NCBI GenBank assembly: GCA_947588825.1
Contig: CANPZU010000004.1
Location: 21,649 to 85,648 of the forward strand
Reading direction: 5' to 3'
DNA: 64,000 nucleotides
Origin: an uncultured Clostridia bacterium
GTDB taxonomy: Bacteria; Bacillota; Clostridia; Oscillospirales; CAG-272
The position numbers and the translations under genes are program-made. Positions 21,416 through 52,681 of the stretch are shown one piece after another. The notes under the pieces are model-generated. The model saw only the letters and a program-made list of their open reading frames with translations, was not told the DNA's origin and searched no databases. Every line of letters begins with the position of its first letter. The stretch's first letter is position 1.

Positions 21416-24400
21416 ATGGCAAACGATGTAATTGATACCCTGTCGCTTGAAATTAATTCTTCGGCGAAGAATGCCTATGCTTCCATCGACGCATTACTCG
21501 GGAGGCTTAACAAACTTAACGGCGCGTTAAATGGAATTAACACAGGCAGGCTTAATAGCCTTTCAACAAGCGTTTCGAGACTAGGGCAATCTGTGAGTAC
21601 ATTCACACAGAATGTAAAAACCGCAGATTTTACCAGAATTGCAAGCGGCTTGAACAAGTTGGCTACTGTTGATTTTTCGGGGCTTGCGAATACGGCAGGT
21701 GCAATTCATAACCTTTCCAACAGCCTTACTGGATTAAATGGGATTTCTTTCGACGCGCAGGGTCTCACAAACCTCATTAACGGCGTATCAAAGTTAGGAA
21801 GGAAAACCGTTACTCAAGCGGCGCAAAATATACCGCAACTCACGACCGCACTTTCCGGGCTTGTGACACAATTAAACAGCATCGGAACTATAAATTTTGA
21901 TTTAACAAGTCTTTCAAACCTTGTATCTTCCGTGTCAAGGCTCGGTGGGAAAAACGCCGGAAATGCTCCGCAAAATATGCAGAACATCGCCAACGGACTT
22001 AAGAACATGATGGCTACGCTGTCGAAAGCGCCGAGGGTAAGCAACAATGTTATCCGTCTTGCGGAAGCAATGGGGCGTATCTCTTCCAATGGCTCTAGGG
22101 CAGGAGCGGCGGCGAGAAGTTTGTCTAGCAATATTCGGTCATTCGGCAACAGTGCAACGAAAACAGAAAAGAAAACAAGAAGCCTTGCGCTTTCTATCGG
22201 AAAGCTTGTTGCCGCTTTTTATGCAATAAAACGAATCGGAAAGGGACTATTTGAATCGGTTGAAAACTCAATGAATTATCTTGAGACTTTCAACTATTTT
22301 AATGCCGCGTTTAATCAAGTGGCGGATAAGGCGGCAGGTGAGTGGCAGGAAGCCGGTTATAAATCTGCGGAGGAATACGCAAACTCATTCAGCAAGAGGG
22401 CACGTGAACTTACCGCGAAAATGACCGGCTTTAATGTTGCCGATAACGGTCTTTTGGCGGAAACGGGCGGAGCATCGCTTGGAATGGACGCAAATATGCT
22501 CTTGAATTATCAAGCGACTTTCGGGCAGATTTCCTCTTCGATGGGGGTTGCGTCTGAAAATGCCTTGCGTCTATCTGACGCGCTGACGATGATCGGCGCA
22601 GACCTTGCGTCCGTGAGAAATGAAGATTTCTCGAAAGTATATGACAACTTAACATCCGGTATTGTCGGAATGAGCCGTGCGGTTGATAAGTACGGCGTAA
22701 ATATCAGAGTTGCCAATCTGGAACAACAGGCGCAGGCGCTCGGAATAAACGCGTCTGTCTCAGCGATGAGTCAAGCCGACAAGGCACTATTGAGAACTAT
22801 TACAATCCTAGACTCAACGCGCTATGCATGGGCAGATTTGTCGAAAACGATCAATATGCCTGCCAATCAGATAAGACTTTTAAAGCAGAACTTTGTTGCT
22901 TTGTCTCGCTCAATCGGAAACATTTTCTTGCCGATCGTGGCAAAAGTTTTGCCGTATCTGAACGCGATGACGATAGCGCTCCGCAGGCTTTTTGAGTTTA
23001 TCGGGAAACTGCTCGGCGTGGACAAAACGATAGGAGACTGGGGTTCTTCCGTCGCCGGTGGTTCTGATGCGCTTTCTGACGCTCTGGATTCTCTCGATAC
23101 CGACGTTCCGACGGATGGGGTGGACAATCTAAGCGATTCTCTTTCCAACGCAAAGGACAAGGCGAAAGAGCTTGAAAAGCGGCTTGCCTCTTGGGATGAA
23201 CTTGAGGTAATCAATCCAAAACAAGACTCCGTAGACGATTACAAATTACCGTCAATCGGAGACATGGCGGCAGATGCCGGACTTGGCGATTATTCAGACA
23301 TTCTGGGCGGCGCTCTTGATGATATTTTGTCTGAATATGAAAAAGCGTGGAACGATGCTTTTAATAGCCTTGACAATAAGGCCGTTAAGATAGCGAACGA
23401 AATAGAAAAAGCGTTCAAGAGCCTTGCAAAAACAGCAAAACCAACAACAGAGGCAATTAAAAAACTCTGGAATGAGGGGTTGAAAAAACTCGGGAACTTC
23501 ACATGGGATACCATAAAGGATTTCTGGAATAATTTCCTGAAGCCGATGGGAACATGGATGCTATCCGACGACGCAGGACTTCCGAGATTTTTCAATATTA
23601 CAAACGATTTACTCAACGAAATTGAATGGGATAGGCTGAATACGTCGCTTGAGAATTTCTTTACTTCCTTACAGAAGCCGGCAAAGTTTGTATGGACTTC
23701 TCTCATGGACTTCTACGAGAAGTTTTTGAAACCGATTTCTGTATGGACAATGAGCGAAGCTATCCCGGATTTGGTTGATGCCCTCACTGACTTTAACGAT
23801 AAGATTAAGTGGGATGAAATAAATGAAGCACTTTCGAATTTCTGGGAAGCGCTTGAGCCATTTGCGGAGTCTGTCGGTCGAGGGCTTGTAAATTTCTTTA
23901 AAGATTTGCTTTCTGTCGGTGCGGACTTTATCAATGCTACAGTACCGGACGGATTAAATTCCTTAGCGGACGCTATAAAGAAAATCAGCCCGGAGACTGC
24001 TGAAAAAATCGGAGAGGGAATCGGGAAGATTGCGCTTGCGCTTGCAGGATTTAAAGGGCTGAACAAGATATCTCAACTATTCGACAAAAAAGGTGCAATA
24101 GGGAAAATATTTGTTGAACTTGCAAAACATCCATACTTTACCATCGCATCTGGCGTGCTTGCAGTTGTCGGCGCTCTTGACAATTTCGGCATTATTGAAG
24201 TTGACTGGGAGTTTTTATATAACAAATTCAAAGATATTAAAGATATACTTGCCGATTTTGTAGATAAAATTGATTGGCAAACAATAAAAGACGGAATCGG
24301 GAAATTTTGGAGCGCATTTCAGCCGTTTGCCGAGGGTTTTGCGGACGGATTTATCGATGCGCTTGATAAGATAGTAAATGGCATAGGCGCTCCATTAATC

Positions 24401-26566
24401 AACGGAATTGCATCCGCGTTTGAAAAGCTTGCGTCGGCACTAGATATGCTTCCGGACGATATGCTTGAGGGAATCGGAAAGGGGCTTGGTGAGATCGCCG
24501 CGGCGCTGTTGGCGATAAAAGGCGCTAAATCCGCAATCAAATGGTTGGGCGAACTCGGAGCATTTAAAGGACTTGGCTCCGGCACAGCGGCCGCAGGAGC
24601 CGGAAGCTCGGCGGGGGCAGGGACGGCCGGAGGCGCGGCCGCCGCAGGTGGCGCGGCGCAGGCGGCAAAAACAGCGAAAGCCGGAAAAGGGTTACTTGAT
24701 GCTTTCAAATCTTTCGGCATGAATGCCGGAGGAACTATTCTTTTTCAAGATACGCTTTCCGGCATTGCCAAACAGCTTGACGGAACCGCAAAGAAGTCAA
24801 ACGAAGCAAAAGACGCACTCGGACTCGTGGCAAAGGCAATGTCTGATGTCGGAATAGAGGGAGACACTTTCGGCGGAAAACTTGGAAATGCGCTTATGCC
24901 GGTAGACGAATTCACGAGTGGTGGAGCGACAGAATTCCTTGCGGCATTTGATGAAATGGTTACGCGCTTCACAAATGCCGGAGGCTCTGCGGACGAATTA
25001 AAAGCAAAATTATCGACGGCCTTGTCCGAGAACACAACACTTTCGCAGGAATACGCTTCCGCTATTCAAGAGTACATCGGCGGAACAGGAGACACGTTCA
25101 CGACAGCCGCGACGGAATACGAGACAGCTTCCGCGCAGATGCAGACGGCAACTTCTGGAATAAGCGGAATGTTGCAGAGCATCAGTGACAACTCGTGGGG
25201 AGCAGATCAACAACTTTCCCTTGTTGCAGGAGCTTTACAGTCGCTTTCTGACAAGGGCTTGCTTTCAAATCCGCAGTTGTCCACTTTGAACGAAATGCTC
25301 TTGAATGCACAAAATTCGGGCGGTGGTTTGGCTCCGATTTTGCAGAACTTGTCCGACGAATTATACAATGCCGGGATTAACGCCCCGACATTTTTTGATG
25401 CCTTAAAGGACGGCTCTTATTACGTGGGTGACAAACTTCCGTCTGATTTCAGCACATTTATCGGGAGTCTGCAAAACGTAAAAACAGAGGCAGACAACGC
25501 ATCAACCGCGACGCAGAACGTCGGCACAAGCGCATTTAACTCAATTGGCAATTTAGTCAGCTTTATCGCGCAAGCCGGATTTATGGCAGGCGGTCTCGGC
25601 TCGATCAAGACCGGGAGCGAAGAAGCTGGAACTAAAATTTCCGAGTTGAGCGGAAACATTGTAAACTTTGTGAATGGTCTCGCCACAAACGCGCAGACGG
25701 TATTCGACGAGGGCAAAAAGACCGGCGAGAACTACCCGGCAGGATTCGCACAGGGCATAGAGGGCAAGAATCAGGATGTCAAAGACGCGTCGCAGGAGAT
25801 GGTCGATACTGCCACCGATACCGTAAAGACCGGGCTTGATATCAACTCGCCATCGGGCGTTGCGGAAGGGTTCGGCGAGAATTACGGTCAAGGGCTGATA
25901 AACGGCATAAAGGCAAAGCTGACCGACCTCGGAACTGTTATGGACAGCGTGATTGACAAGCTGAAAAAACCGTTTGACAACCTTGCGCAGAACTTCCAGA
26001 CCGTCGGCAAAAACCTCATGGTTTCCTTGCAGAACGGCATCAACTCACAGCACATTTCCCTGCCGAGGATTTCCGTGAGCTGGACAAAGTACTTTATGGG
26101 GAACAGCCAGTTTTCCATCCCGAATTTCAGTCTTAGCTATCTTGCAAAGGGCGGTCTGATTACCGACGAGATGCTTGCCATCATGGGCGAGAACCGGCGC
26201 AAGGAAGCCGTCCTGCCGCTTGAGAACCAGAAAACCATGTCGATGATCGCGGACGCTATCGTGGACAGGATGCCGCAGAGACTTGACATCGGCAACATCG
26301 AGATAAACCGCTCGCAGGCTCCATACGTCACGACGGCGAACATCCCGCGGAGCACGTATTCCGACAGCTTCGGCGACGATATGCGCCGGGATATCGCGGC
26401 AATCTCGTCGAACACGTTCAACAATAACACGAACATCGGGCAGGCGGTCAAGGAAGCGCTGAACGGCATGGCGGTCGTGGCGGACGGCTATATTATCGGC
26501 TACCTGCAGAGCAAGAACATGGAATCTCGGAACCAGAACGGCGGTCTCGGGATTTTTGAAGTGTAG
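21416..26566 (+). CDS. Tail tape measure protein
   Basis: 1716 aa. It is helical and low-complexity with Ala/Gly-rich hydrophobic segments, and it lies in the expected position downstream of the chaperones apart from the inserted island. Confidence 0.9.
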   Translation: MANDVIDTLSLEINSSAKNAYASIDALLGRLNKLNGALNGINTGRLNSLSTSVSRLGQSVSTFTQNVKTADFTRIASGLNKLATVDFSGLANTAGAIHNLSNSLTGLNGISFDAQGLTNLINGVSKLGRKTVTQAAQNIPQLTTALSGLVTQLNSIGTINFDLTSLSNLVSSVSRLGGKNAGNAPQNMQNIANGLKNMMATLSKAPRVSNNVIRLAEAMGRISSNGSRAGAAARSLSSNIRSFGNSATKTEKKTRSLALSIGKLVAAFYAIKRIGKGLFESVENSMNYLETFNYFNAAFNQVADKAAGEWQEAGYKSAEEYANSFSKRARELTAKMTGFNVADNGLLAETGGASLGMDANMLLNYQATFGQISSSMGVASENALRLSDALTMIGADLASVRNEDFSKVYDNLTSGIVGMSRAVDKYGVNIRVANLEQQAQALGINASVSAMSQADKALLRTITILDSTRYAWADLSKTINMPANQIRLLKQNFVALSRSIGNIFLPIVAKVLPYLNAMTIALRRLFEFIGKLLGVDKTIGDWGSSVAGGSDALSDALDSLDTDVPTDGVDNLSDSLSNAKDKAKELEKRLASWDELEVINPKQDSVDDYKLPSIGDMAADAGLGDYSDILGGALDDILSEYEKAWNDAFNSLDNKAVKIANEIEKAFKSLAKTAKPTTEAIKKLWNEGLKKLGNFTWDTIKDFWNNFLKPMGTWMLSDDAGLPRFFNITNDLLNEIEWDRLNTSLENFFTSLQKPAKFVWTSLMDFYEKFLKPISVWTMSEAIPDLVDALTDFNDKIKWDEINEALSNFWEALEPFAESVGRGLVNFFKDLLSVGADFINATVPDGLNSLADAIKKISPETAEKIGEGIGKIALALAGFKGLNKISQLFDKKGAIGKIFVELAKHPYFTIASGVLAVVGALDNFGIIEVDWEFLYNKFKDIKDILADFVDKIDWQTIKDGIGKFWSAFQPFAEGFADGFIDALDKIVNGIGAPLINGIASAFEKLASALDMLPDDMLEGIGKGLGEIAAALLAIKGAKSAIKWLGELGAFKGLGSGTAAAGAGSSAGAGTAGGAAAAGGAAQAAKTAKAGKGLLDAFKSFGMNAGGTILFQDTLSGIAKQLDGTAKKSNEAKDALGLVAKAMSDVGIEGDTFGGKLGNALMPVDEFTSGGATEFLAAFDEMVTRFTNAGGSADELKAKLSTALSENTTLSQEYASAIQEYIGGTGDTFTTAATEYETASAQMQTATSGISGMLQSISDNSWGADQQLSLVAGALQSLSDKGLLSNPQLSTLNEMLLNAQNSGGGLAPILQNLSDELYNAGINAPTFFDALKDGSYYVGDKLPSDFSTFIGSLQNVKTEADNASTATQNVGTSAFNSIGNLVSFIAQAGFMAGGLGSIKTGSEEAGTKISELSGNIVNFVNGLATNAQTVFDEGKKTGENYPAGFAQGIEGKNQDVKDASQEMVDTATDTVKTGLDINSPSGVAEGFGENYGQGLINGIKAKLTDLGTVMDSVIDKLKKPFDNLAQNFQTVGKNLMVSLQNGINSQHISLPRISVSWTKYFMGNSQFSIPNFSLSYLAKGGLITDEMLAIMGENRRKEAVLPLENQKTMSMIADAIVDRMPQRLDIGNIEINRSQAPYVTTANIPRSTYSDSFGDDMRRDIAAISSNTFNNNTNIGQAVKEALNGMAVVADGYIIGYLQSKNMESRNQNGGLGIFEV

Positions 26567-27052: not shown

Positions 27053-30000
27053 ATGTCTTGGCTACCGTTACCATACATACAATTGGAATCCGCACGGACA
27101 AACGGAACGGATTATCTTGACACGCAGTGGAGCGCGGGATACGGGTTTTCCGCACAGTTCGTCGGGTGCGCGGCGAACGGTGCATACCTGTTCGGCGCAA
27201 TGACTTCCGAGGATTCTGCGGACAAGTTTGCCTTGCAGTTTCAGGAAGGGAAATATATTTATTATTTTGGCGACCAGACCGCGGAGTCTCCGGCAGAGTA
27301 CGAGTTGGGTGAGCCGCATTTTTTTGTCCTCGGCGGTAACTCATGGAGCATCGACGGCGTGCCTATGCCGAGTACTTCATTCTCTTTGTCGCCAAGCAAT
27401 GAAATGACTTTGAATGTTTACGTTGGCGCAGTGAATGTCGGTGGAGAGGCACAGCACTTGTCGGACGTTCAGATTGGGCTTATCAATTTTAGCGGTTCAA
27501 GCGGCTTCAAACAATGGAGACAATGCAAGACACAGGACGGACAGTTTGGTTTTGGTCTTTACATCAGCAGTTCAATTACGGAGTTTGTCGAAAAGCCAAA
27601 TTTTACTTACAGCGACGTGATGGCGGCTCAATCTAGCACAGCATTGACTGTTATCGGTGCACCGACAAAAAAGGACTACAAACTCGGCGAACCATTCGAC
27701 CCGACTGGAATGACGGTATATCTTCCGCTCGACGACGGGACGAGGAGAAACATCACAAGCGAAGCCGAAGCAAAATACCCGGACGGCTCGACGGAATTCA
27801 GAAATGACGCCATTATTCAGCACGGCAGTATAAACTATATCTACTACAGATATAAACCTTTTGGTGTTGATTATACATTTTTTGAATTTTCACCTAAAAA
27901 TTACTATGCTTCTATTGGAAATTTTCCGTATACTGTCAGCTCGGATTCCCCCGTAGAGTCCATAGAAGTGACGAAACTGCCGGACAAGACAGAATACCTC
28001 ATTAAGGAGTATTTCAGCACAACCGGCATGGTGGTGACCGGGCATCTCGAAGACGGCGAGACTGTGGAAATTGGGGACGGTTACACAAGCAGTCCGAGTC
28101 GTTTCACAAAAGAGGGAACAATTGACGTCACGATCGGTTGGTATGATGGAATGAAATCTATCATATCCGAACCGTTTCAAGTCACGGTCAAGAATGCTGT
28201 TGACAAGCTGAACATCACGCTCCCGACAAAATCCGAATATTCCATCGGCGAGAAGTTCAACCCGACGGGCATCACGGTGACGGCGCTTTACCTCGACGGC
28301 ACAGAACGCCCGATTTACAACTTTTTCGTGGATTCGAGCAAATTCGACAGCACGAAAGAGGGCGGCTACGCGATTACCGTCAAGGCTACGGTGGACGAGA
28401 AAGAGTACACGGAGACTATCACGGTGTACGTGTTCGGCGCGCCGAAAAAGCTCGAAGATTTGCTCGGCACGACCGAGGGAATGACGGTCATTCGGAATAA
28501 TTCCAAGAACGACGGCGGAAAAGACACAATCTCCGGAGTAGATTGGTTTGTATTTGACGGAAATACAGCAAGCAAGATTTATGTCAGCGGTGATAATTAT
28601 ATAAGCTTCAATAATACGACGGAGCACATTAAAATCTGCCGCCGCGACGGTGCGACGTACTATGTCTATTCGCAGGCAGGCAAGCTCGACGATGGGCGAA
28701 AATTCTTCAAAATCCGCGTCGAGGGCTACACGAACTGGAATTCCGCAACTACACAATATGCGCTCAAGTACGAGCTGTTCCTGTTTGATGATAACAGCAT
28801 GTTCCTTAACATCCTGCAAGCGCCGACGAACACGTCCTATCTTGGCACGAGCGAGTTGTATTATTACCTCACAACGCCTTCGGCGGCGGGAATGACGCAT
28901 GTTCCGTTCACGGTCGAGGCGGGAAAGGCTCAGGAATTCCGTTTCTTCACCAGTGACCCGGCGCAAGGAAAACCGTGGGAGGTTGTTGCGGGAAAGCCGA
29001 AGAAGCTCGAAGATTTGCTGAATACGACCGAGGGCATGGAGGTTATAAAAAACAACGAGGAAATAGTCAGTACTGTATACGTTGATGGAGTTCCGTGGTT
29101 TGTATCAAACAGAATAAAATGTGAAGAAATAGGCGTAACCGGAAGCGTTTATCTATCAAACATAAATCTTCGCGTATGCAGAAATACATATTCGGGAGGC
29201 GTGGTTTGTTATATTTATCGCCAAGAAGGATTGCTTGACAATGGACATAGATTTCTGAAACTGCGCATCGAGGGGTACACAAGATCGGACTTAAAAACTG
29301 ATGATTATGCAGTAAAATATGAGCTCTTTCTGTTCGATGATAACGGAATGTACCTTAACACAATTCAGGTTCCGACAAACGGCGTTTATATAGGTGAAAG
29401 CGGGCTTTTCTGGTCGGACAAAAGGCTTCCGTTTTCATTTGAGCTTGGAAAGCCGAGGAATGTAAGTTTTTACACGACCGACCCGGCAAACGGCGCTCCG
29501 TGGTTTCTCACGTACTATGACTACGATTTCACAAAGTCTTCCGTTCGCTACCTGACCGCAATTCCGACAAAATATGAGTATAATGCCGGTGAGGAATTCG
29601 ACAGCAACTCATTCGACGTGACCGCAACGTGGATTGACGGAAAAACAGAAAGAATCACAGATTTTTCCGTGGATTCCGCAAACTTTAACAAGGAAAAAGA
29701 AGGAAGGTACACGGTAACTGTCACGGCGCAGATTGATGGGAAGGAATATACAGCTGAAACGATTGTAGCCGTGTATGGAAATCCGCACAGCATTTACGAT
29801 CTGATAAATACAACAAGCGGAATGGAAAGCCACAGAGTATACAATTCCGGCATGACAAACGCACATATATACGGAGTCCCGTGGTTCAATTTTGATGGAA
29901 ACAATATTTTTGATATCGAAGCAAGCGATGGAAATATATTGTTTTTCAGGGAAAATACGAACGGTGACTATGTAGTATATGAAGAAGGAGAAAACTTCCT

Positions 30001-33000
30001 TGTATGTGGGCGCATGACTTACCCAACAAGAAATTACCGCACGCAGGAAGGAAAACTGGAAAACGGGCACAGGTTTTTCAAGATTCGCGCGGATGTAGAT
30101 AACGACCAGAGGCAGGCACTATACGAGCTGTTCTTCTTCGACGACAACAGCATATACCTGAATCTGATAAATACGACCACACTCGAAGACAACAACACTT
30201 CTTTCCTTAAATGGTCGGGCGGTACGATCGAAATTCCGACAAAATTCAAAACTCCGCTTGTGGCAAGTTTTTACACCACGGATTCCGAACAGGGAGCGCC
30301 GTGGACGATGGAAGTTGCACAGCATAAGTTTATCAAGACCGTGGAGTCCATCTCGGCAATCGCCACGAAGAGAGAATATGATTTGTACGATTCGCTCGAC
30401 AAAAAAGCTTTTGCCGTGACCGCAAACTTATCGGATGGCACGACCGCAAGCGTTTCAAGTTTTAGCGTTGACTCGTCTTCTTTTGACAACACAAAAGAAG
30501 GGCGGTACTTCATCACGGTCAAGTCTACGGTACTCGGCACGGAGTACACGACGCAGGCGGTGGTTGTAGTTTATGGAAATCCCTATAACATTCTGGATTT
30601 GCTGAACACGAATGAAGGGATGGAAAGGATTTACGCCCCGTCCTACGTATCGGAACTTGGGGATGTATCTTGGTTTGTTTTCGATGGAAAACGAGTAGAA
30701 GAAATAGGAACTGCGAGTTTGAGCAGAGTCTATTTTAACGGGACAATAGCTGTAAGAGTGTGTGAAAGCTCTTACGGCACAACGAATTACACATACATGC
30801 AGGAAGGAAAGCTTGACAACGGTCATAAGTTCCTGAAGTTGAGATGTGAAGGGGGCACTTCTGAGTATTTCCCGACTTTCGAGCTTTTCCTGTTCGATGA
30901 TAACAGCATGTATGTGAACATACTGAAAACCACAGACCAAGGCGGGAAAAGCGGACTTACATGGAGCGACGGAGAACTTGAAATCCAGGTCACGTTCGGA
31001 GAAACACAGAAAGCAAGCTTTTACACGGACAACCCTTCCGAGGGCAAGCCGTGGACGATGGAAGTTGACTATCATAACTTCATCAAAGAAAAGATGCGGA
31101 CGCTGACAGTCAATGGAGGCGAAGGCTCTGGTTTATATCTTCCGGGTGAGTCTGTAACAATCAAGGCGGAGGAGAGGACAGGGAACAGATTTCGGTGGCT
31201 GAAAGACGGAGGGCTTTTTGTGCCAAAACCCAAAGTTGTGAGCATGAATTCAAGCTACACGCCTATCCCCAAAAATGGAAACCTGCTTGTATTTGCATGG
31301 TGGAGCTATTCAAACGCAGAAAGCTCTACGCAAATAAGCGGTTGGACATATGACGGCACGTTAAGAGAATCCGGCGATAAGGATGCCGGAAGCACGGAAA
31401 ATATTGCATATGTTCACATATATCACAAAATAAATGATGGGATTGTTTCGACTGGAAAAGCGGGATACTACTTTGAGATTGGAAACGCAAAATCTTTCGA
31501 ATTGCAGGAAAGCACAAGACAGGAAAACCTGCTCCTCACAAGCGCAAACAGCTTTTTGTGTGCGAAGGAAACAGATGACTTGTATTTGTGGTTCCTGTTT
31601 GCATTGTACTGGTCGACGAGCAGAAGATGGGTCGCACAGCCGGACGTGATTTCCTATTTCCCAGGCATCGGAAACTCTGATTCGAATTTCTCCGTTCTGA
31701 TTGACGAGAATGTCCCGCCTGTCAGCTTCCGGGTAAGCGTATCATCCGCTATGGCAACGCGTTACGGCTCAGCAATCGGCGCACGCATTGTCCCGTCATA
31801 CACGGGATACGAGCGTGAGATGACGTTCACGATGCCGGATGAAGACTTGACGGTTACCGCGGAGTATTCCCTGATTGCCGACAGAATCGAGATTACCAAG
31901 AACCCGTTCAAGATGAATTATAAGCTTGACGAAACGTTCAATCCTTCCGGCATGGTAGTCACGGCGCATTTTGCGGACGGAACAAGCAAAGCAGTCAGGG
32001 ACTACACATTCTCGGAGCTTGACAGTTCGACGCCCGGCGCGAAGGAAGTCACGATAACCTATACGGACGGGGTCGAGTCGGTGTCCGCGACGCTGACGGT
32101 CAACGTCGGGCTTAAGGGAATTGCGATTACCAGATTCCCAAACAAGACGACGTATGCGCGGCTCGAAGACTTGGACACGGAAGGGCTTGAAGTTTCCATC
32201 GTTTATGCGGACGACAGCACATACCCGACAGAAGATTACACATTGTCATTTTTCGACAGCACGAGCATAGGAATCAAAACCGTGACCGTCACGTCCTTGA
32301 TTGACGGGTATCCCTACAACGCGCAGTTTACCGTTGCGGTCACGTCGTCTGGCGACAATCCGTTCAAGGGATACAACGAGAACCGCACGATGCGGATTCA
32401 CTTCGTGGACGGGAAGTATAAGGATATTACGGGCGACGAGATTGAGGGCGAGTCCATGTCCCTCACGGAGTCGGTCGGGAACGACAAGAACCTGCAATTC
32501 GGGGGATGCATCTCGACGCAGTTCTCGGTGAACATCTTTTCGGAACAGTTCATGAACCCGGAAGAATACCCGGACGGCGACATTGAAGTGTATCTTGAAA
32601 CCCCGGATGATTCGTTGCGGATATTCACCGGGACAATCGAAAGCGCGGAGCGGACAGGCGGCATCAACAAACGGAAGCTCATTGCTTACGACTACCTGAA
32701 ACGCAAGAGCTCCATCAGCCTTAAATACTGGTACGAATCGCTGACGTTCCCGATCACGCAGAAAGATTTCCGCGACAGCCTGTTCAAGTTTATGGGCATC
32801 CTTCAGGAGACGACGCATCTCTACTACGATGACGCGATGGTTCCCGACAATATGAATGTGGACAGCATCACGTTCCTGTCGCTTGCCAAGGACATCTGCC
32901 TATGCAATAAATGTTTCGGGCATATCAATGCGGACGGTGTATTCGAGTACATCACGCTCCGGGAAAACGGCGGGATCGATCAGGCGGGAAAGCTTTACTT

Positions 33001-34006
33001 CCTGACCCCGCAGGACGCAGTTGCAGACGACGAGGTGATCTCGGCGACGTTCAAGGAAGGAAAAATCTGGGCTCCGACGAATTTTTGGATTTCTCCGAAC
33101 CCGAGCATTCCGTATGTCGATGTTCCTCCATTAGATAACAAATACGGATATAACGTCAACTATTACCACATCCGCAACAGCTACATGATTGGCGACAAGG
33201 ACTGGATTAACAAAGCATACGAAAGCGTCATTCACGATACCGGGACAGAGACGTACTCCGCGGACGAATTAAAATACCCGATCGTACTCGGCCCGACTTT
33301 CGGAGGCGGGGGCGGCAACATATACGCGCAGGAATACAGCCTTACGACGCCCGGAAATTTCCTGCGGAAAATCGGAACGAACATCGAGTTCAACTGCATC
33401 AAGTACCGCGAGGACGGAACGCCTGTCACATGGAAGATAAACTCGTTCGTTATGTCCCGGACGATCACCGGAGTCCGGTCGCTGAAAGACGTGTACACGG
33501 CGAAGAACTCATCATATGATGAGGAAACATATGGCGTTGCGAAGGCGACAAGGGACAATTCAGACGCGCTGAATACGGTAAAGGATGAAATGCCAAAAAG
33601 TACAGAAGAAAGCGACGGATTAGACGTTTCCATAGAGCCATTTGGAGGCGCTGACTACAAGGGCGATATAGAATGGAGAAAACATTACGAAGAAGTTTAC
33701 CAAGAAGAAATGGAGCGTCTAAAAAGAGAAGAAAAAGAAGAGTACGACAAACTTACTGAGTATCAGAAAAAAAAGATCGCCGATATGGCGGCGGCGAAAA
33801 AAGCAAAAGAAAAGAAAAACACGCTTACTGTCTACAAAGACGGCACGGCAAGATACAACGGCGTAACAATCAGTGGTTCCGGCAGTTCTGGCGGCGGTGG
33901 CGGCGGCGGGACAGGCGGTTTTGATGTCCAGTCCGTCACGTCGCTTCCGTCGAACCCCGACCCGAACACGATTTATCTCATACAAGGCGAGGTGGTAGTG
34001 AACTGA
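27053..34006 (+). CDS. Giant tail/baseplate protein with Ig-like (Big_3-type) domains, four tandem unknown ~185-aa modules, a Tal-like region and a Gly-rich C terminus
   Basis: 2317 aa. It has repeated Ig-like modules of the form TKxEYxxGExFDxxGxxVTAxxxDG. An unknown module (..KKLEDLL.TTEGM...WFVFDG...GKLDNGH.F.K.R.EG...YELFLFDDNSMYLN) occurs four times. The C terminus carries a coiled coil and GGGGGGG. Confidence 0.85.
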   Translation: MSWLPLPYIQLESARTNGTDYLDTQWSAGYGFSAQFVGCAANGAYLFGAMTSEDSADKFALQFQEGKYIYYFGDQTAESPAEYELGEPHFFVLGGNSWSIDGVPMPSTSFSLSPSNEMTLNVYVGAVNVGGEAQHLSDVQIGLINFSGSSGFKQWRQCKTQDGQFGFGLYISSSITEFVEKPNFTYSDVMAAQSSTALTVIGAPTKKDYKLGEPFDPTGMTVYLPLDDGTRRNITSEAEAKYPDGSTEFRNDAIIQHGSINYIYYRYKPFGVDYTFFEFSPKNYYASIGNFPYTVSSDSPVESIEVTKLPDKTEYLIKEYFSTTGMVVTGHLEDGETVEIGDGYTSSPSRFTKEGTIDVTIGWYDGMKSIISEPFQVTVKNAVDKLNITLPTKSEYSIGEKFNPTGITVTALYLDGTERPIYNFFVDSSKFDSTKEGGYAITVKATVDEKEYTETITVYVFGAPKKLEDLLGTTEGMTVIRNNSKNDGGKDTISGVDWFVFDGNTASKIYVSGDNYISFNNTTEHIKICRRDGATYYVYSQAGKLDDGRKFFKIRVEGYTNWNSATTQYALKYELFLFDDNSMFLNILQAPTNTSYLGTSELYYYLTTPSAAGMTHVPFTVEAGKAQEFRFFTSDPAQGKPWEVVAGKPKKLEDLLNTTEGMEVIKNNEEIVSTVYVDGVPWFVSNRIKCEEIGVTGSVYLSNINLRVCRNTYSGGVVCYIYRQEGLLDNGHRFLKLRIEGYTRSDLKTDDYAVKYELFLFDDNGMYLNTIQVPTNGVYIGESGLFWSDKRLPFSFELGKPRNVSFYTTDPANGAPWFLTYYDYDFTKSSVRYLTAIPTKYEYNAGEEFDSNSFDVTATWIDGKTERITDFSVDSANFNKEKEGRYTVTVTAQIDGKEYTAETIVAVYGNPHSIYDLINTTSGMESHRVYNSGMTNAHIYGVPWFNFDGNNIFDIEASDGNILFFRENTNGDYVVYEEGENFLVCGRMTYPTRNYRTQEGKLENGHRFFKIRADVDNDQRQALYELFFFDDNSIYLNLINTTTLEDNNTSFLKWSGGTIEIPTKFKTPLVASFYTTDSEQGAPWTMEVAQHKFIKTVESISAIATKREYDLYDSLDKKAFAVTANLSDGTTASVSSFSVDSSSFDNTKEGRYFITVKSTVLGTEYTTQAVVVVYGNPYNILDLLNTNEGMERIYAPSYVSELGDVSWFVFDGKRVEEIGTASLSRVYFNGTIAVRVCESSYGTTNYTYMQEGKLDNGHKFLKLRCEGGTSEYFPTFELFLFDDNSMYVNILKTTDQGGKSGLTWSDGELEIQVTFGETQKASFYTDNPSEGKPWTMEVDYHNFIKEKMRTLTVNGGEGSGLYLPGESVTIKAEERTGNRFRWLKDGGLFVPKPKVVSMNSSYTPIPKNGNLLVFAWWSYSNAESSTQISGWTYDGTLRESGDKDAGSTENIAYVHIYHKINDGIVSTGKAGYYFEIGNAKSFELQESTRQENLLLTSANSFLCAKETDDLYLWFLFALYWSTSRRWVAQPDVISYFPGIGNSDSNFSVLIDENVPPVSFRVSVSSAMATRYGSAIGARIVPSYTGYEREMTFTMPDEDLTVTAEYSLIADRIEITKNPFKMNYKLDETFNPSGMVVTAHFADGTSKAVRDYTFSELDSSTPGAKEVTITYTDGVESVSATLTVNVGLKGIAITRFPNKTTYARLEDLDTEGLEVSIVYADDSTYPTEDYTLSFFDSTSIGIKTVTVTSLIDGYPYNAQFTVAVTSSGDNPFKGYNENRTMRIHFVDGKYKDITGDEIEGESMSLTESVGNDKNLQFGGCISTQFSVNIFSEQFMNPEEYPDGDIEVYLETPDDSLRIFTGTIESAERTGGINKRKLIAYDYLKRKSSISLKYWYESLTFPITQKDFRDSLFKFMGILQETTHLYYDDAMVPDNMNVDSITFLSLAKDICLCNKCFGHINADGVFEYITLRENGGIDQAGKLYFLTPQDAVADDEVISATFKEGKIWAPTNFWISPNPSIPYVDVPPLDNKYGYNVNYYHIRNSYMIGDKDWINKAYESVIHDTGTETYSADELKYPIVLGPTFGGGGGNIYAQEYSLTTPGNFLRKIGTNIEFNCIKYREDGTPVTWKINSFVMSRTITGVRSLKDVYTAKNSSYDEETYGVAKATRDNSDALNTVKDEMPKSTEESDGLDVSIEPFGGADYKGDIEWRKHYEEVYQEEMERLKREEKEEYDKLTEYQKKKIADMAAAKKAKEKKNTLTVYKDGTARYNGVTISGSGSSGGGGGGGTGGFDVQSVTSLPSNPDPNTIYLIQGEVVVN

Positions 34007-45379: not shown

Positions 45380-46021
45380 GTGGAGTACAGAAAAAACAGG
45401 AACAACCATGTGATTGTCTGCGGCACAATCCGCGGCGAATTCACATTAAACCACGAAACGCACGGCGAGAAGTTTTATGTCGCGTCGATCGACAGCAAAC
45501 GGCTCAGCGGACGGGTTGACAGCATCCCGGTCATGGTCTCGGAGCGTCTTGTGGACGTGACGGAGGACTGGGGCGGGCAGACAGTGCTCATTGAGGGCGA
45601 CATGCGCTCCCACAACAGTTTGGAACACGACAGGAATCATCTGCACCTGCACGTTTTTGCGAAATATTTTGCAGAGTGCGGCGCGGGGGAATCTGATGAT
45701 AACGAAATATATCTCGACGGATATATCTGCCAAGACGTCCGATACCGCGAAACGCCGCTCGGACGGGAGGTTTCCGATCTGATGCTCGCGGTCAACCGTC
45801 CGTACTGGAAATCAGACTACATACCGTGCATCTGTTGGGGGAGGAACGCGATGTTCTCGGCAAGCCTCGAAAAAGGAACGCATCTGCGGGTTAAGGGGCG
45901 CATCCAGAGCCGTGAATACCACAAGCGAATATCCGAAGAAGAATACGAACAGCGGACGGCCTATGAGGTGTCTGTGAGCAGTCTGGAGGTGATTTCCGAT
46001 GATTTCGCAGAAGAAGATTGA
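45380..46021 (+). CDS. ssb: Single-stranded DNA-binding protein with duplicated OB fold
   Basis: The second half (NEIYLDGYICQDVRYRETPLGREVSDLMLAVNR...ICWGRNAMFSASLEKGTHLRVKGRIQSREY) follows the SSB OB-fold pattern. The first half is a weaker copy. Confidence 0.7.
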   Translation: MEYRKNRNNHVIVCGTIRGEFTLNHETHGEKFYVASIDSKRLSGRVDSIPVMVSERLVDVTEDWGGQTVLIEGDMRSHNSLEHDRNHLHLHVFAKYFAECGAGESDDNEIYLDGYICQDVRYRETPLGREVSDLMLAVNRPYWKSDYIPCICWGRNAMFSASLEKGTHLRVKGRIQSREYHKRISEEEYEQRTAYEVSVSSLEVISDDFAEED

Positions 46022-46448
46022 GGAAACGCTACTTAGAATCGGCGTTCCTGCCGGGATACATGGATTCCGCTATATCACGGACGCAATCAAGCTTCTTGAT
46101 GATCCGGAATGGAAGAACATCAAAACGATTGCCCTGTACGAAAAGGTTGCGAACATGAACAATGCAACCGCAGGAAGCGTCGAGCGCGCAATTCGCCACG
46201 CGCTCATGACAACAAGGAACCACGTCGGAGAGACGGAAGATGTTCTGCGCTATATCGGCGGCAAGGAAACGAGGAGCGCGGACGCGTTGAAGCTTCTTTA
46301 CACAAGGCTCAAGAATGAGGACGATGCAAAAGTCCGGGAGAGGAACGTGGACGGTCTGAGCCAAGATGAGATTACACTGCGCCGGATTATCCGCGAGGAA
46401 GTCCGGGAGTTTCTGAAAGGCGTTCTTTTGGGAGGTGACACGTTATGA
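45999..46448 (+). CDS. Spo0A C-terminal domain-like protein (second copy)
   Basis: LLRIGVPAGIHGFRYITDAIKLL...LYEKVANMNNATAGSVERAIRHAL closely follows the Spo0A_C pattern. Confidence 0.7.
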   Translation: MISQKKIEETLLRIGVPAGIHGFRYITDAIKLLDDPEWKNIKTIALYEKVANMNNATAGSVERAIRHALMTTRNHVGETEDVLRYIGGKETRSADALKLLYTRLKNEDDAKVRERNVDGLSQDEITLRRIIREEVREFLKGVLLGGDTL

Positions 46449-46973: not shown

Positions 46974-47522
46974 ATGGCAAGAAGGAGCGGATACTACGGT
47001 TTCGGCTTCAACCCGGAGCTGAATAAAAACCATTTTTTGGTCTCGATTCCAGACAGTAAGAGGGCAGACACAAAGGTTTGCGTTTATGAGCGTTTTCGGT
47101 GGGATGCGGACGGCGAGCAGAAAATCCACGAGGAAGATTTGCTGAAGGTCGAGTTCGAGCGCCGGAAATGGTCGAAGATTGCCGAGACCGTGACGAGGGA
47201 ATTCAATATCCGGCTGAAGCAGGACAGGCTTCCGGTCGGCAAATTTTCGTCCGGTGGAGTCCCGGTAGAAAAGCGACTCGGCAAAGAGCTGATTTGCCTG
47301 CTGTGGTCTCTGGAAGGATGCGCAGAATCCTGCATCCCTACAGCTTTGCGGAATTGGCTCGGTCTACAGCCGGAAGAAAGATGGTGGCTGTACACGATGA
47401 CGAACGCGAACACTGGGGCAGCCGGTGACGGTAACAGAGGATGGCGGGTAGCGCTTAAGTATATCATGTGCGAAAACCCGGTCGATAGCCGGAATTATGA
47501 ACAATTATCAATGGGGGTATAA
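46974..47522 (+). CDS. Hypothetical protein
   Basis: 182 aa from ATG 46974. The longer 46611 ORF-track version overlaps two well-supported genes and is rejected. Confidence 0.6.
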   Translation: MARRSGYYGFGFNPELNKNHFLVSIPDSKRADTKVCVYERFRWDADGEQKIHEEDLLKVEFERRKWSKIAETVTREFNIRLKQDRLPVGKFSSGGVPVEKRLGKELICLLWSLEGCAESCIPTALRNWLGLQPEERWWLYTMTNANTGAAGDGNRGWRVALKYIMCENPVDSRNYEQLSMGV

Positions 47523-47526
47523 AACG

Positions 47527-47712
47527 ATGAAGAAATACCGCGAGGAATTAGAAAAGCACGTAAACGACATTCTCGATGAGATTGAGGCAGATGTAAATAC
47601 TGTCGCAAATGAACTTGAGACGATCATGTACTCGAAGGACGGCGCAGAAATCTCAAAGTGTGCAAGACATGCATGGGAGATGCTAAATAGCCTTTCCGTT
47701 AGACTGCATTAG
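47527..47712 (+). CDS. Hypothetical small protein
   Basis: A 61-aa helical ORF. Confidence 0.5.
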   Translation: MKKYREELEKHVNDILDEIEADVNTVANELETIMYSKDGAEISKCARHAWEMLNSLSVRLH

Positions 47713-47753
47713 CAGGATGTGCGTGGCTGCAAGCTTATGAGGGGGATTGGAGC

Positions 47754-48014
47754 ATGGAGAAAGAACATCGCAAGGGCAAAGATGGTTATTTTATGATGGA
47801 TAATGTGATTGATAGGATTGAAGAGGAGTGCTCAAAGACTGGAACAAGAAAATGCATTGATGTTGTCTGCAATATGATTGGCGTATTTCGCGCAATCAGA
47901 GATGCAGAGCCATCGATGGAATATTCCGTCGAAGACGTTTGCAGGCTTCTCGATTCTGTTTACGAGATCGTCTTTGATGATACCTTGAAAGAAACGGAGG
48001 ATAAAAATGATTGA
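47754..48014 (+). CDS. Hypothetical small protein
   Basis: An 86-aa ORF with RBS GGGGGA. Confidence 0.55.
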   Translation: MEKEHRKGKDGYFMMDNVIDRIEEECSKTGTRKCIDVVCNMIGVFRAIRDAEPSMEYSVEDVCRLLDSVYEIVFDDTLKETEDKND

Positions 48015-48174
48015 AGCAATGGAACTCGCCCTCGTGGACAAAGACAGGGTGCGCGAGGTAAAGGAGGAAACAAAGCGGAAACTCCGCAACGGCAACGAGA
48101 CCATGAAAATCCGGGCAGAGGGCATGAAATACGCGCTTGAATGCCTAGATTTATGGGAAAATAAAGAAAACTAA
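48007..48174 (+). CDS. Hypothetical 55-aa ORF
   Basis: I translated it by hand. It overlaps the upstream stop. Confidence 0.4.
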   Translation: MIEAMELALVDKDRVREVKEETKRKLRNGNETMKIRAEGMKYALECLDLWENKEN

Positions 48175-48198
48175 ATCAAAAAAGGGAGGAAACGAAAA

Positions 48199-48813
48199 AT
48201 GGAAACCAAAATGGCAAAAGAGATGAAAGTGCGCTTGACTTTCACTGAACAGATTCTTGGCACGGCAAGCAACGACAAAGAGATTCACGCAGAGTTTATC
48301 GCAAGCAAAGCGCCGGACGCGCCGAGCCGGGAGGAAGAGATTGAGGCTATCGGCGTGGATGCGGCAATCGAAAAGGGCATGACGGTATTCAGCCGCAACC
48401 CCGACGGAAAGCCGATTCTGTTCGACTACCAACTCAAAGGTTTTTTCAAAAATTGCGCAAAAGCGTTCAATTATGTCGGAGGAAAGGAAAAATTGACGGC
48501 ATACAAGTCGAAAATCGACAATCTTATTTTCATCAAAGAGCGCATGATTGAACTCCATCTGCCGGATGGAGAGGAAATCGGAAACTGCCAGAGACCGCTC
48601 CGGGCGAATACGGCGCAGGGTGAACGCGTTGCCCTTGCAAACAGCGAATCATGCCCGCCCGGTACATACATCGAATTCACGGTCATGGTAATGGTCGGCG
48701 AGTTGATGGAGCATGTCATTAAGTGGCTTGACTACGGTGCTCTGAACGGCATCGGGCAGTGGCACAACTCCGGCTGTGGGCGCTTTGAATGGACTGACAT
48801 TTCTGATAAATAG
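48199..48813 (+). CDS. Hypothetical protein with C-terminal Cas6/RAMP-style glycine-rich loop motif
   Basis: 204 aa. The extreme C terminus, GIGQWHNSGCGRFEW, fits the pattern G-h-G-x5-G-h-G. The RBS is GGGAGGAAA. Confidence 0.65.
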   Translation: METKMAKEMKVRLTFTEQILGTASNDKEIHAEFIASKAPDAPSREEEIEAIGVDAAIEKGMTVFSRNPDGKPILFDYQLKGFFKNCAKAFNYVGGKEKLTAYKSKIDNLIFIKERMIELHLPDGEEIGNCQRPLRANTAQGERVALANSESCPPGTYIEFTVMVMVGELMEHVIKWLDYGALNGIGQWHNSGCGRFEWTDISDK

Positions 48814-48814
48814 T

Positions 48815-49499
48815 TTGAAATGGAACGGTACGGACTTGATGAGAAAGGCATTGGATAGGCGTAGTCCCGATTGGATTTGCAGAGGCGGCGCATGGTGATG
48901 AACTGGCAGGCTCCGAGTCGGAGGAGAAAAGCACGGATGAGATCGGCGATGATTTGGAAAAGCGAGGACGCGCGGCGCGTGGACTGGAATGGATGCGCAT
49001 TGGCTAGGAACAGAGGAGATAAGACACGAAACGCAAAGAAACGAAAAGGACAAGCACGGAGGTGAGCGGAGTAGATAAGGATTTGAGCAGAAAAGATTCG
49101 ATATGATCGGACAAGGCGAAGCGTAGCTCGGAGACGTGAGGAGTGGAAACGGAGGGGACTTGAATCGAGTGGATGAGAAACGTGGCGGCAAGGCGACGCA
49201 AGGATTCGACAGGATTCGGAAAGGCTTTGAGGGGAAGCGAGCCGAAGAGGAATGGCATAGAAAGGACACGACGTGGCGTGGCATGAAAACACATAGAGAG
49301 GAAACGGCATAGCTACGCTCGGGGCAGAGAAGCGGATGGGCGGCGATATGTTCTGAATTGGAGAAGACTTGATATGCGCAGACCGAGAAGAGCAGGAAAG
49401 GAATAGAGCAGAAACGGAATCGTTTAGCAAAGATCAGTGAAGCTTTGGAGAGGCGTCGATTTTCACGGACTAGATCGGCAAAGGAAAGGTGGTGGTTGA
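48815..49499. other. ~690-nt purine-rich (G+A on the + strand) non-coding tract
   Basis: All three + frames are full of stops. The minus strand carries only long low-complexity S/P/L/F ORFs, which are compositional artefacts. Imperfect repeats of the form TGGAA(A)CGG..GGACTTGA lie near 48821, 49144 and 49357. Confidence 0.7.
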
Positions 49500-49715
49500 T
49501 TGTATGTCGGCATCTTAACAGAACAAGGCAAGAGCGTTCACGACGCAGACGCTTTCCCATACGCCTGCGAGCGCGTGGAGAGCGGCACAGTGGAAGAACA
49601 GGCAGAGTTTATGAGCATCGCCGCAGACAGCGCGGACTTCACGGAATTTGCGGCACGGGTGGTTGAGTGGTTTTATTCTGGAGACTGGATTTATCAAAAT
49701 GAAATGGAGGACTAA
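49500..49715 (+). CDS. Hypothetical small acidic protein
   Basis: 71 aa with a TTG start and a purine-rich RBS region. Confidence 0.45.
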   Translation: MYVGILTEQGKSVHDADAFPYACERVESGTVEEQAEFMSIAADSADFTEFAARVVEWFYSGDWIYQNEMED

Positions 49716-49718
49716 GAG

Positions 49719-50177
49719 ATGGAAGAAAAAAGAATTATCGAGATTGACGGCGTAAAAATCGAGGTTGACATGAGGACGGCAAAGAGGATTGACACGTTCA
49801 GGGTCGGCGACAACGTGAAAGTCCTGTGCAAAAGCGGGGACGACTTCAAGGTAAGACCGGGCGTGATTGTGGATTTCTGCAACTTCAAGGAAAAGCCGAC
49901 AATCAGCGTGGCGGTGTACAAAGAGCCGTCCTACTACGGCGGCAGACCGGGAATCGAGATTATCAACATCTTCGAGGGCATGGAGGACAAGTACGAGATT
50001 GTCTACACGAGTGAGGACGATTTACGTCTGACGCGCGATGGAATCATTGAAAGGTTCGAGCATGAAATCCAGAAAAAGAAAGAAGAAATGCTGGATTTGG
50101 AGAATCAGCTTAGCTATTTCAAGAAGCATTTCCTTAAGGTTGGGTTAGGTGATAAAGATGAGACAGAATCCTTGTAG
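49719..50177 (+). CDS. Hypothetical protein
   Basis: A 152-aa ORF. Confidence 0.6.
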   Translation: MEEKRIIEIDGVKIEVDMRTAKRIDTFRVGDNVKVLCKSGDDFKVRPGVIVDFCNFKEKPTISVAVYKEPSYYGGRPGIEIINIFEGMEDKYEIVYTSEDDLRLTRDGIIERFEHEIQKKKEEMLDLENQLSYFKKHFLKVGLGDKDETESL

Positions 50178-50472
50178 GTACTGCATTCTTTCGGAGGAAT
50201 ACAAAGGCGTTCATTACAGGGGCGGTGACAAGAAGTGCGAAACCTGCGAGAAGTATTTCGCCCACAGGGAATACCTGAAATCCAAGAGGAAGTTTGCAGA
50301 GGGCGAACCGATAAACTCTGTCGAGGAACTTCTGAAGGAAGAATGGGTTATGTGGTACGGACAAACAAAGCATATTGAAACGTTCAAATCAATGCCGCTG
50401 AGGAATGTGCTTAGATTTTTGGAATTAGGCGAAATCAGAAAGGCAGTCAGAAAAGAAAGAGAGGATGATTGA
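50158..50472 (+). CDS. Zinc-finger-containing hypothetical protein
   Basis: CRYC...CETC. The RBS AGGTGA precedes ATG 50158. Confidence 0.55.
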   Translation: MRQNPCRYCILSEEYKGVHYRGGDKKCETCEKYFAHREYLKSKRKFAEGEPINSVEELLKEEWVMWYGQTKHIETFKSMPLRNVLRFLELGEIRKAVRKEREDD

Positions 50473-50474
50473 TT

Positions 50475-51224
50475 ATGGCAGAACAGAACACAAATTTGGC
50501 AACACAGCAGGAGCAGAAACCGGCAACAGCAAACAAGGTGACGGATTTTAGCCTCGGCATTTTCGGCACGTCCGACAACTTCATCATGGCGAACCAAATG
50601 GCGAAGGCTCTGGCGAACTCGACAATGGTTCCGAAGGAATATCAGGGCAACGTGTCAAATGCCCTGGTCGCGATGGAGATGGCCGTGCGCGTTGGGACAA
50701 GCCCTTTGATTGTCATGCAGAACCTTGATGTGATTTACGGCCGTCCTTCGTGGAGGGCACAGTACATAATCGCCATGATTAACGGTTCTGGGAAGTACGA
50801 CATGGAGTTGCAGTATGACGAGAAAACCGACAAGAACGGAAAACCGTTTTCCTGCCAGTGCTGGACGACAAAGAACGGCCGCAGGGTGGATGGCCCGGTC
50901 ATTGACATGGATCTGGCAAAAGCCGAGGGTTGGTACGAAAAGAACGGGAGCAAGTGGAAAACCATGCCGCAGGTGATGCTCAGATACCGTGCGGCGGCAT
51001 TCTTTGGCCGCTTCAACTGCCCGGAACTTATCATGGGGCTGTATTCAAGAGATGAAGTAATCGAAATGGGAGCACAGCGCGACATTGAGGTCGAGGCGGA
51101 AGTTTTTGACCCGTTTGAGGCAAAGGCAGAGGCGGTCAAAAAAGAAGCCGAAAAGCCGCAGGAAACAGTTGAGATGGCTGACGGCGAACAGGCAACGCTT
51201 GATTTGAATGGAGAAAAGGCATGA
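50475..51224 (+). CDS. recT: RecT-family single-strand annealing recombinase
   Basis: MVPKEYQGNVSNALVAMEMAVRVGTSPLIVMQNLDVIYGRPSW...KWKTMPQVMLRYRAAAFFGR follows the RecT pattern. Confidence 0.8.
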   Translation: MAEQNTNLATQQEQKPATANKVTDFSLGIFGTSDNFIMANQMAKALANSTMVPKEYQGNVSNALVAMEMAVRVGTSPLIVMQNLDVIYGRPSWRAQYIIAMINGSGKYDMELQYDEKTDKNGKPFSCQCWTTKNGRRVDGPVIDMDLAKAEGWYEKNGSKWKTMPQVMLRYRAAAFFGRFNCPELIMGLYSRDEVIEMGAQRDIEVEAEVFDPFEAKAEAVKKEAEKPQETVEMADGEQATLDLNGEKA

Positions 51225-51967
51225 TTCTCACAGAGGAAACCTATTACAGCCGCGAGGCAGATACCGCATTCTTCAGCGTGAGCCAGTATAAGTCATTCTG
51301 CCGCTGTCCTGCCGCTACGATGGCAAGACTGCGAGGAGAGTATGAACCACCCACGAACACGGCGTTCCTTGTCGGGGGATATTTCGACGCTTACTTTGAC
51401 GGAAGTCTTGAACGGTTCAAAGCGGAGCACCCGGAAATACTTGTGACAAGGGGCGAACGCAAGGGCGAACTGAAATCCGAGTTCCGGCAGGCAGAGGTGA
51501 TGATCGAGCGCGCCAAGAGTGACAAGCTGTTCATGAAATTCATGTCCGGCGAGAAGCAGAAGATCCTTACGGCTGACCTGTTCGGCGCTCCGTGGAAATG
51601 CAAACTGGATTCATTTTCGGAGGGTATCTGTATCACTGACCTAAAGACCTGCCAGAGTTTCGGGACGATACCGCGATACCGATACGACATTCAAGGCGCG
51701 ATATACCAGAAAATCGCGGAGCTGAACGGATACGGCAGACTGCCGTTTTACTTGGCGGCGTGCACGAAAGAAACCGTCCCGGGACTGCGGATTTTCCAGA
51801 TGCCGAATGAAGTCCTTGACCTTGCACTTAGTGAGGTGGAATCAAATATGCCCCTGTTCATTGCCATGAAGAACGGTGAGGAAGAAGCAACGCACTGCGG
51901 CTCTTGCGATTACTGCAAGAGTACGCAGGATGCGGAGATACACAGTTATTTGGAGCTTTTGGCTTGA
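51221..51967 (+). CDS. PD-(D/E)XK exonuclease, Cas4/RecB-like with Cys cluster
   Basis: An N-terminal Cys (FCRCPA) pairs with a C-terminal HCGSCDYC cluster. ITDLKT is a DxK-type motif. The gene is paired with recT. Confidence 0.65.
   Translation: MILTEETYYSREADTAFFSVSQYKSFCRCPAATMARLRGEYEPPTNTAFLVGGYFDAYFDGSLERFKAEHPEILVTRGERKGELKSEFRQAEVMIERAKSDKLFMKFMSGEKQKILTADLFGAPWKCKLDSFSEGICITDLKTCQSFGTIPRYRYDIQGAIYQKIAELNGYGRLPFYLAACTKETVPGLRIFQMPNEVLDLALSEVESNMPLFIAMKNGEEEATHCGSCDYCKSTQDAEIHSYLELLA

Positions 51968-52075: not shown

Positions 52076-52681
<606 letters not shown>

Follow-up and report, generated by a model that had tools for sequence, protein, structure and literature searches.

What kind of protein is encoded at positions 48199 to 48813 of the window (the whole 64-kb stretch of DNA that was analysed), and does the non-coding tract directly downstream belong with it? 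From the letters alone, the initial annotation had read a glycine-rich loop towards the end of the protein as the possible mark of a stand-alone RAMP-like RNA-binding or RNA-processing protein, encoded in a phage and having the adjoining tract as its candidate substrate. This overall interpretation, of a RAMP-like protein and an adjoining tract in a phage, was supported, and a motif-level hunch from raw sequence had correctly pointed to a CRISPR-related RNA-guided system. We consider the locus, with a probability of roughly 85%, to be a VIPR system of a temperate gut phage, composed of a vipr gene and a staggered vrRNA array (48809 to 49501) of roughly 21 short guide blocks.

VIPR (Viral Interference Programmable Repeat) is presented as an RNA-guided, DNA-silencing system of phages and proviruses built on a minimal RAMP (Vipr) with no CRISPR array, whose flanking intergenic vrRNAs consist of at least four tandem pentamer repeats of the form YNNGG, or of the relaxed forms NNNGG, YNNNG and NNNNG (bioRxiv 10.64898/2026.04.26.720920). 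Some of these form "staggered arrays", described from loci, with an overlap of 1 nt between successive vrRNAs (bioRxiv 10.64898/2026.04.26.720920, legends of fig. S17-S18 and Methods). The preprint names seven VIPR types and six vap genes, and all types keep the pentamer code (bioRxiv 10.64898/2026.04.26.720920); from six vap genes for seven types, a type devoid of vap may exist. The class, its mechanism and the staggered arrays have already been described in the 2026 preprints, and the locus in the window is therefore not a discovery in its own right.

The open reading frame at 48199 to 48813 is real; it is on the forward strand, begins with ATG, and encodes 204 amino acids, as against the approximately 200 first estimated. 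A Shine-Dalgarno sequence, GGGAGG (48184 to 48189, forward strand, read from the sequence), lies 9 nt 5' of the ATG at 48199. The stretch KVRLTFTEQILG, which had been cited for the beta/alpha character of the N-terminal region, was located at residues 10 to 21. The putative glycine-rich loop, GIGQWHNSGCGRFEW, occupies residues 184 to 198 (codons 48748 to 48792, forward strand) and fits the G-h-G-x5-G-h-G pattern as claimed, but does not form the literal last 15 residues of the protein, as the six residues TDISDK follow it, placing the motif near the C-terminus and not at its very end. When 62 diverse members of the family were aligned (A1), conservation proved highest in the G-loop, where G184, W188 and G194 are invariant and Q187, N190 and F196 are conserved in at least 90% of sequences. 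That these three residues are invariant across so diverse a set speaks against the resemblance being coincidental, which the initial annotation had left open.

Searches of Pfam, PHROG and, with the single sequence, of the PDB returned no match for the Vipr protein, so that its RAMP identity is seen only through family profile and fold searches. The family recovered by a word-indexed search comprises 6224 proteins, falling into 1692 clusters at 50% identity, with close relatives including P0002 (93% identity) and with at least 558 loci in IMG/VR that encode relatives. Two members, P0128 (458 aa) and P0141 (432 aa), are approximately double the usual length and were matched by the query in two stretches, suggesting that tandem double-Vipr fusions may exist. 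The related IMG/VR loci, along with four GenBank phage records, are largely of human-gut or faecal origin.

The predicted structure places the protein among the RAMPs. The AlphaFold (AF2) model is confident (pLDDT 87.7), and has a beta-alpha-beta-beta-alpha-beta topology with a hairpin at residues 128 to 152 and the G-loop at 184 to 195, corresponding to a single RRM core, a thumb and a C-terminal G-loop. Foldseek returned 216 PDB matches at E ≤ 1e-3, and type VII Cas7 and Csm3 lead among the matches listed (E 3.5e-8). A VIA search, independent of Foldseek, gave a Z-score of 13.5 against Csm3 (9g9a_D), and the best 50 PDB entries from this search all have the RAMP fold, 47 of them being CRISPR RAMPs and three RNase P subunits. 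In the PDB, the A1 profile matched Csm4 and a 200-aa type VII Cas7 (21bh_B, E 7.8e-5), with an alignment limited precisely to the final helix, the G-loop and the final strand. At the level of family models the matches were fainter: searches with RAMP models (Pfam PF03787; TIGR Csm3/Cmr4) gave no Pfam match for Vipr, the PADLOC Cas7_IIId model was matched by 7/62 of the A1 members, and some members touch the PADLOC Csm3, Cmr4 and Cas6 models, all NCBIfam and PADLOC matches being below threshold and confined to a minority of members. The G-loop resemblance reflects common descent, Cas7 being the closest relative, and the protein is a minimal Cas7-like RAMP with a conserved G-loop.

The proposal of a stand-alone RAMP-like protein accordingly holds for the single-RRM RAMP core, thumb and G-loop that are predicted, but the likeness to Cas6 that accompanied it does not, the nearest relatives being Cas7 and Csm3. 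Identity with Cas6 was rejected, given a single RRM within 204 aa as opposed to the two RRM domains of Cas6, and given VIA scores for Cas6 structures (Z 9.2 and 8.4, with only one Cas6 domain aligned) below the 13.5 of Csm3. Identity with the Cas7 of type III or type VII CRISPR-Cas was likewise rejected, there being no cas operon, no CRISPR array and no PF03787 match. Csm3/Cmr4 and type VII Cas7 share with the window protein the RRM-thumb-G-loop fold (Z 12-13.5) and resemble the window system in forming filaments on RNA, each protomer covering a fixed step of the guide. They differ in having CRISPR repeats, Cas10, Cas5, Cas11 or Cas6 partners and a PF03787 match, and in a step of 6 nt where that of the window is 5 nt; by homology, the window system would target double-stranded DNA by way of a gapped code. 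Type IV-B CRISPR-Cas, in which Csf2 forms filaments on non-CRISPR RNAs (PDB 7jhy, Z 10.7), is similar in pairing a Cas7-like protein with the absence of a CRISPR array, but is a multi-subunit complex on heterogeneous host RNAs and has no dedicated pentamer array. In BFVD, the protein A0A8S5R426 of an uncultured siphovirus, 55% identical to the window Vipr, bears the UniProt name "Cas system-associated RAMP superfamily protein", and weaker structural matches were found in Los Azufres archaeal virus 2 and a betalipothrixvirus.

The non-coding tract reported downstream of the gene, of about 690 nt, is also real: 48814 to 49499 comprises 686 nt, contains stops in all three forward frames and, at 69% A+G, is richer in purines than any other part of the window. 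Long minus-strand ORFs in the tract were set aside as artefacts of a pyrimidine-rich strand, and stop-codon recoding was rejected, TAG and TGA being present in all three frames and TAA in two. For G in the tract, the lag-5 autocorrelation is 0.40 and the lag-10 value 0.30, and the lag-5 periodicity (z = 10.3 against Markov shuffles) occurs at this one site in the 64-kb window. Viterbi segmentation divided the array (48809 to 49501, forward strand) into approximately 21 blocks with about 137 pentamers in all. The regular part (48809 to 49286) consists of 13 consecutive blocks of MNNNG pentamers (92 units), with lengths of 45, 31, 36, 36, 46, 46, 31, 36, 36, 36, 31, 31 and 37 nt, nearly all of which are 5n+1 nt, each block being shifted by +1 in phase relative to the preceding one. 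The distal, less regular part (49287 to 49501) runs to the start of the next gene, and contains eight shorter or irregular blocks of 20, 26, 28, 21, 14, 21, 31 and 54 nt.

Within the units, position 5 is G in 93% of cases and position 4 in 39%, and position 1, the position following the conserved G, is A in 64%, C in 28%, T in 7% and G in 1%, favouring A or C over a pyrimidine. As position 1 is almost never G, a G in that position is essentially limited to block boundaries, where it shifts the register; it is the punctuation of the array. The tract is strictly 5-nt-periodic: each pentamer has a single conserved G, and the blocks are 5n+1 nt long. No CRISPR-type direct repeats of 25-40 nt were found in the tract, which holds short degenerate ones only; Rfam and tRNA scans of the whole window gave no match, and consensus promoter and terminator scans stayed at the level of shuffles. 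The folding energy of the tract is not better than that of shuffled sequences (z +1.65), indicating that it has no structured tail.

This pairing of gene and array extends across the family. A 5-nt G-periodic non-coding tract abuts the gene in 79/79 of the homologous loci analysed, whether upstream, downstream or on both sides, bearing out the association that the initial annotation had suggested surveying. The lengths of the family blocks are of the form 5n+1 nt in 86% of 842 cases, mostly 26, 31 or 36 nt. By blastn, the window tract has no similarity to the related loci, indicating that the arrays are conserved in grammar and not in sequence. Among close relatives in five clades, variation at the periodic G is 3-9 times lower than at positions 1 to 4, all of which are variable between related arrays, and entire 31- or 36-nt blocks come and go, or are swapped, in the manner of cassettes. 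Gene and array always travel together across the analysed loci; between relatives, the periodic G persists amid exchange of the other bases and of entire blocks.

Independent rabbit-gut assemblies from another study (runs X5/X6) contain vipr and its downstream genes at approximately 96% identity to the window, and have vipr-proximal blocks replaced (29 nt by 147, 214 by 45, and 85 by 156), with the distal ~190 nt (49306 to 49499) kept at approximately 96%. The change is polar, the proximal and middle blocks being replaced and the distal end conserved, a pattern reminiscent of leader and trailer in a CRISPR array.

How close is this system to those already characterised? The published staggered VIPR loci (bioRxiv 10.64898/2026.04.26.720920) resemble the window in that a solo minimal RAMP is encoded by a phage or provirus lacking a CRISPR array, that intergenic pentamer arrays with a conserved G flank it, and that guides are offset by 1 nt, each one's end marking where the next begins, represented here by 5n+1 blocks and the +1 phase. 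The window differs in having no recognised vap gene and in its preference for A or C after the conserved G. The canonical GGY/NN (YNNGG) motif is absent from the window array, in which only position 5 is conserved, and the repeat belongs with the alternative NNNGG/NNNNG class of that preprint.

The type II VIPR of Escherichia phage SUSP1 (Vipr ALH47069.1, KT454805.2 28474-29061) offers a second comparison, and the support for homology between the window protein and the characterised Vipr clade is moderate. An HMM scan of the SUSP1 genome with the A1 profile gave no match, and hhalign aligned A1 with SUSP1 Vipr over 171 columns (probability 84.8%, E 6.5e-6) and with a profile of the SUSP1 clade (A2) over 190 columns (probability 79.6%, E 1.5e-5). 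Both proteins are RAMPs of approximately 200 aa, alignable over their full length, and their G-loops, GVGDWRPRFGRF in SUSP1 and GIGQWHNSGCGRF in the window, correspond, with the G-stacking tryptophan W178 of SUSP1 equivalent to W188. The arrays of both are found by the lag-5 scan, which, run on KT454805.2 as a positive control, placed the SUSP1 locus at 27.5-29.5 kb and recovered its YNNGG runs. In SUSP1, vap1 is present and four discrete vrRNAs of approximately 100 nt each carry 9-16 YNNGG repeats and have a structured 3' tail, where the window has ~21 tail-less blocks of 5-10 single-G pentamers and no vap.

In the cryo-EM structure of SUSP1, one protomer sits on each repeat, with G2 stacked on the G-loop tryptophan and held by a thumb arginine, and the NN bases are presented to double-stranded DNA with each third target base skipped; D177, W178 and R179 contact the vrRNA, and H17 and D177 read the first G (2026 VIPR preprints). 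In an alignment of moderate confidence, H17 and D177 are replaced by T22 and Q187 in the window Vipr, a change that would fit a relaxed, single-G repeat in which the first G has been lost.

By homology with the SUSP1 and P. fulva systems, both studied experimentally (2026 VIPR preprints), the array would be transcribed together with the early operon, and one Vipr protomer would occupy each pentamer, with the conserved G held against W188 and the thumb. The resulting helical filament would show the variable bases to double-stranded DNA, and its binding may silence the genes of other elements sharing the host, whether competing phages, satellites or prophages. The idea that the RNA of the tract is the partner of the RAMP gains from the match of the gene-array pair to published VIPR, where such RNAs are coated by the RAMP; by the same analogy, the array RNA would be a guide bound by the predicted Vipr, and not a substrate that it cleaves.

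We investigated the genes surrounding vipr in the window and at the related loci. The RecT module announced by the initial annotation is present, with a RecT-like SSAP at 50469 to 51224 (phrog_561, E 2e-73), followed by a DUF3799 PDDEXK exonuclease (51221 to 51967) and, just past this pair, by a small serine recombinase (52088 to 52681; Resolvase N-terminal domain, E 1.2e-29). Genes on the 5' side of vipr encode a two-OB SSB, a protein resembling the C-terminal domain of Spo0A (PF08769, E 7.6e-15; 45999 to 46448), a DUF3780 protein (E 1.4e-44; 46977 to 47522) and an anti-repressor. The gene is surrounded by phage early genes; no vap accessory gene was recognised among them, and the small neighbours at 47497 to 48174 and 49500 to 50472 have no Pfam domain.

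Comparison of plus-strand ORFs between loci identified no cluster of neighbouring genes common to all. The commonest neighbours are an SSB, an anti-repressor, an SbcC-like ATPase and SSAPs of three unrelated families (RecT, Erf and Sak), and NinB/Orf was also often seen near vipr homologues. An SSAP is present in 41/59 loci with enough downstream DNA, usually 0.4-1.7 kb downstream of the vipr homologue, and 18/59 have no recognised SSAP; this proximity may reflect a functional link, or only a shared position in the early operon.

No Cas10, Cas14, Cas5, Cas11 or Cas6 genes were found among the neighbours of vipr, and neither Cas1 nor a PF03787 RAMP in the host genome (96% complete), in which a crude repeat scan returned four short tandem-repeat sites only. 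Taken with the phage early genes around vipr and the tract's lack of 25-40-nt repeats, this agrees with the first description of the locus as a phage with no CRISPR array.

What the array of the window might target was examined under several reading codes. Twelve reading rules applied to the host genome and loci, with the array unmasked, gave no excess of matches over shuffled guides, and eleven rules applied to the host genome and 80 loci, with arrays masked, gave none above shuffled guides. Matches to a symmetric rule were rejected as unmasked homologous arrays, and a 2- to 4-fold excess with the skipped base at the wobble position was also discarded, as it vanished under within-guide shuffling and is therefore compositional. 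One pattern scan of IMG/VR returned a single match at chance level, in a capsid gene, with the skipped base not at the wobble position. The dinucleotides at pentamer positions 2-3, over all arrays, have a composition like that of codon positions 1-2 of the sense strand, and for order-shuffled guides, too, matches to coding DNA that place the skipped base at the wobble position are approximately twice as frequent; this evidence is compositional only.

Under the published rule of two bases per pentamer, blocks of 5-9 pentamers specify only 10-18 bases, few for a unique target. An alternative code is suspected from this figure, from the altered first-G residues and from the avoidance of G at position 1. 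It is conceivable, if on balance unlikely, that the single-G short-block staggered clade does not use the GGY/NN code with its 1-nt skip, and reads 3-4 bases per pentamer or relies on cooperative neighbouring blocks; the position next to RecT/Erf/Sak could signify a link to recombination and not pure silencing.

The most probable of the rivals is a ribonucleoprotein of Vipr type with a different reading rule or job: more than two bases per pentamer, cooperating blocks, or action on the recombination or replication intermediates of the phage's own SSAP module in place of the silencing of rival elements. The replacement of the SUSP1 G1 contacts (H17 by T22, D177 by Q187), the variation of all of positions 1-4 between related arrays, the shortness of the blocks at just 5-9 pentamers, and the SSAPs of three unrelated families in 41/59 loci would all accord with it. 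Even so we regard it as improbable, since rules with 3-4 read bases and the symmetric rule gave no matches above shuffled controls, the published types all keep the pentamer code (bioRxiv 10.64898/2026.04.26.720920), and the adjacency of the SSAP, which is not recognised in 18/59 loci, may mean no more than a shared early operon.

The position of the tract among SSB, RecT and exonuclease genes, and the strong purine skew of its transcribed strand, could also be expected of a replication origin or of an R-loop-forming leader of the early operon, with the protein binding single-stranded nucleic acid generically as part of the recombination module. Purine skew alone, however, yields neither a lag-5 G periodicity of z = 10 nor 5n+1 blocks with a +1 shift, the arrays of other loci may precede the gene, follow it or flank it, and block-wise replacement between 96%-identical phages would not be expected of an origin; we judge this explanation very improbable. 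Phages carry mimics of Cas proteins, and the nearest solved structures are Csm3 and type VII Cas7, but the notion that the protein is an anti-CRISPR decoy, a phage Cas7 mimic poisoning host type III/VII effectors beside an unrelated purine-rich tract, is scarcely credible, as the lack of Cas1 and of a Pfam RAMP in the host argues against an anti-type-III role and the conserved-G, 5-nt-periodic array in 79/79 loci is left unexplained.

Read as a VIPR system, the locus adds a well-described rabbit-gut prophage example to the class and places constraints on its least-studied architecture, in the form of the 5n+1 grammar, the MNNNG logo and the position-1 G boundaries, together with the turnover of vipr-near blocks, the conservation of distal ones, and the change in the residues that read the first G in SUSP1. 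The residual novelty lies in the reading rule and the targets of the single-G short-block clade. We additionally identified two very long forward-strand ORFs in the same phage region, at 21416 to 26566 (1716 aa) and 27053 to 34006 (2317 aa). Among the runs listed as holding the locus, none is an RNA run, and those with more than a small share of it are all rabbit-gut metagenomes, from two studies.
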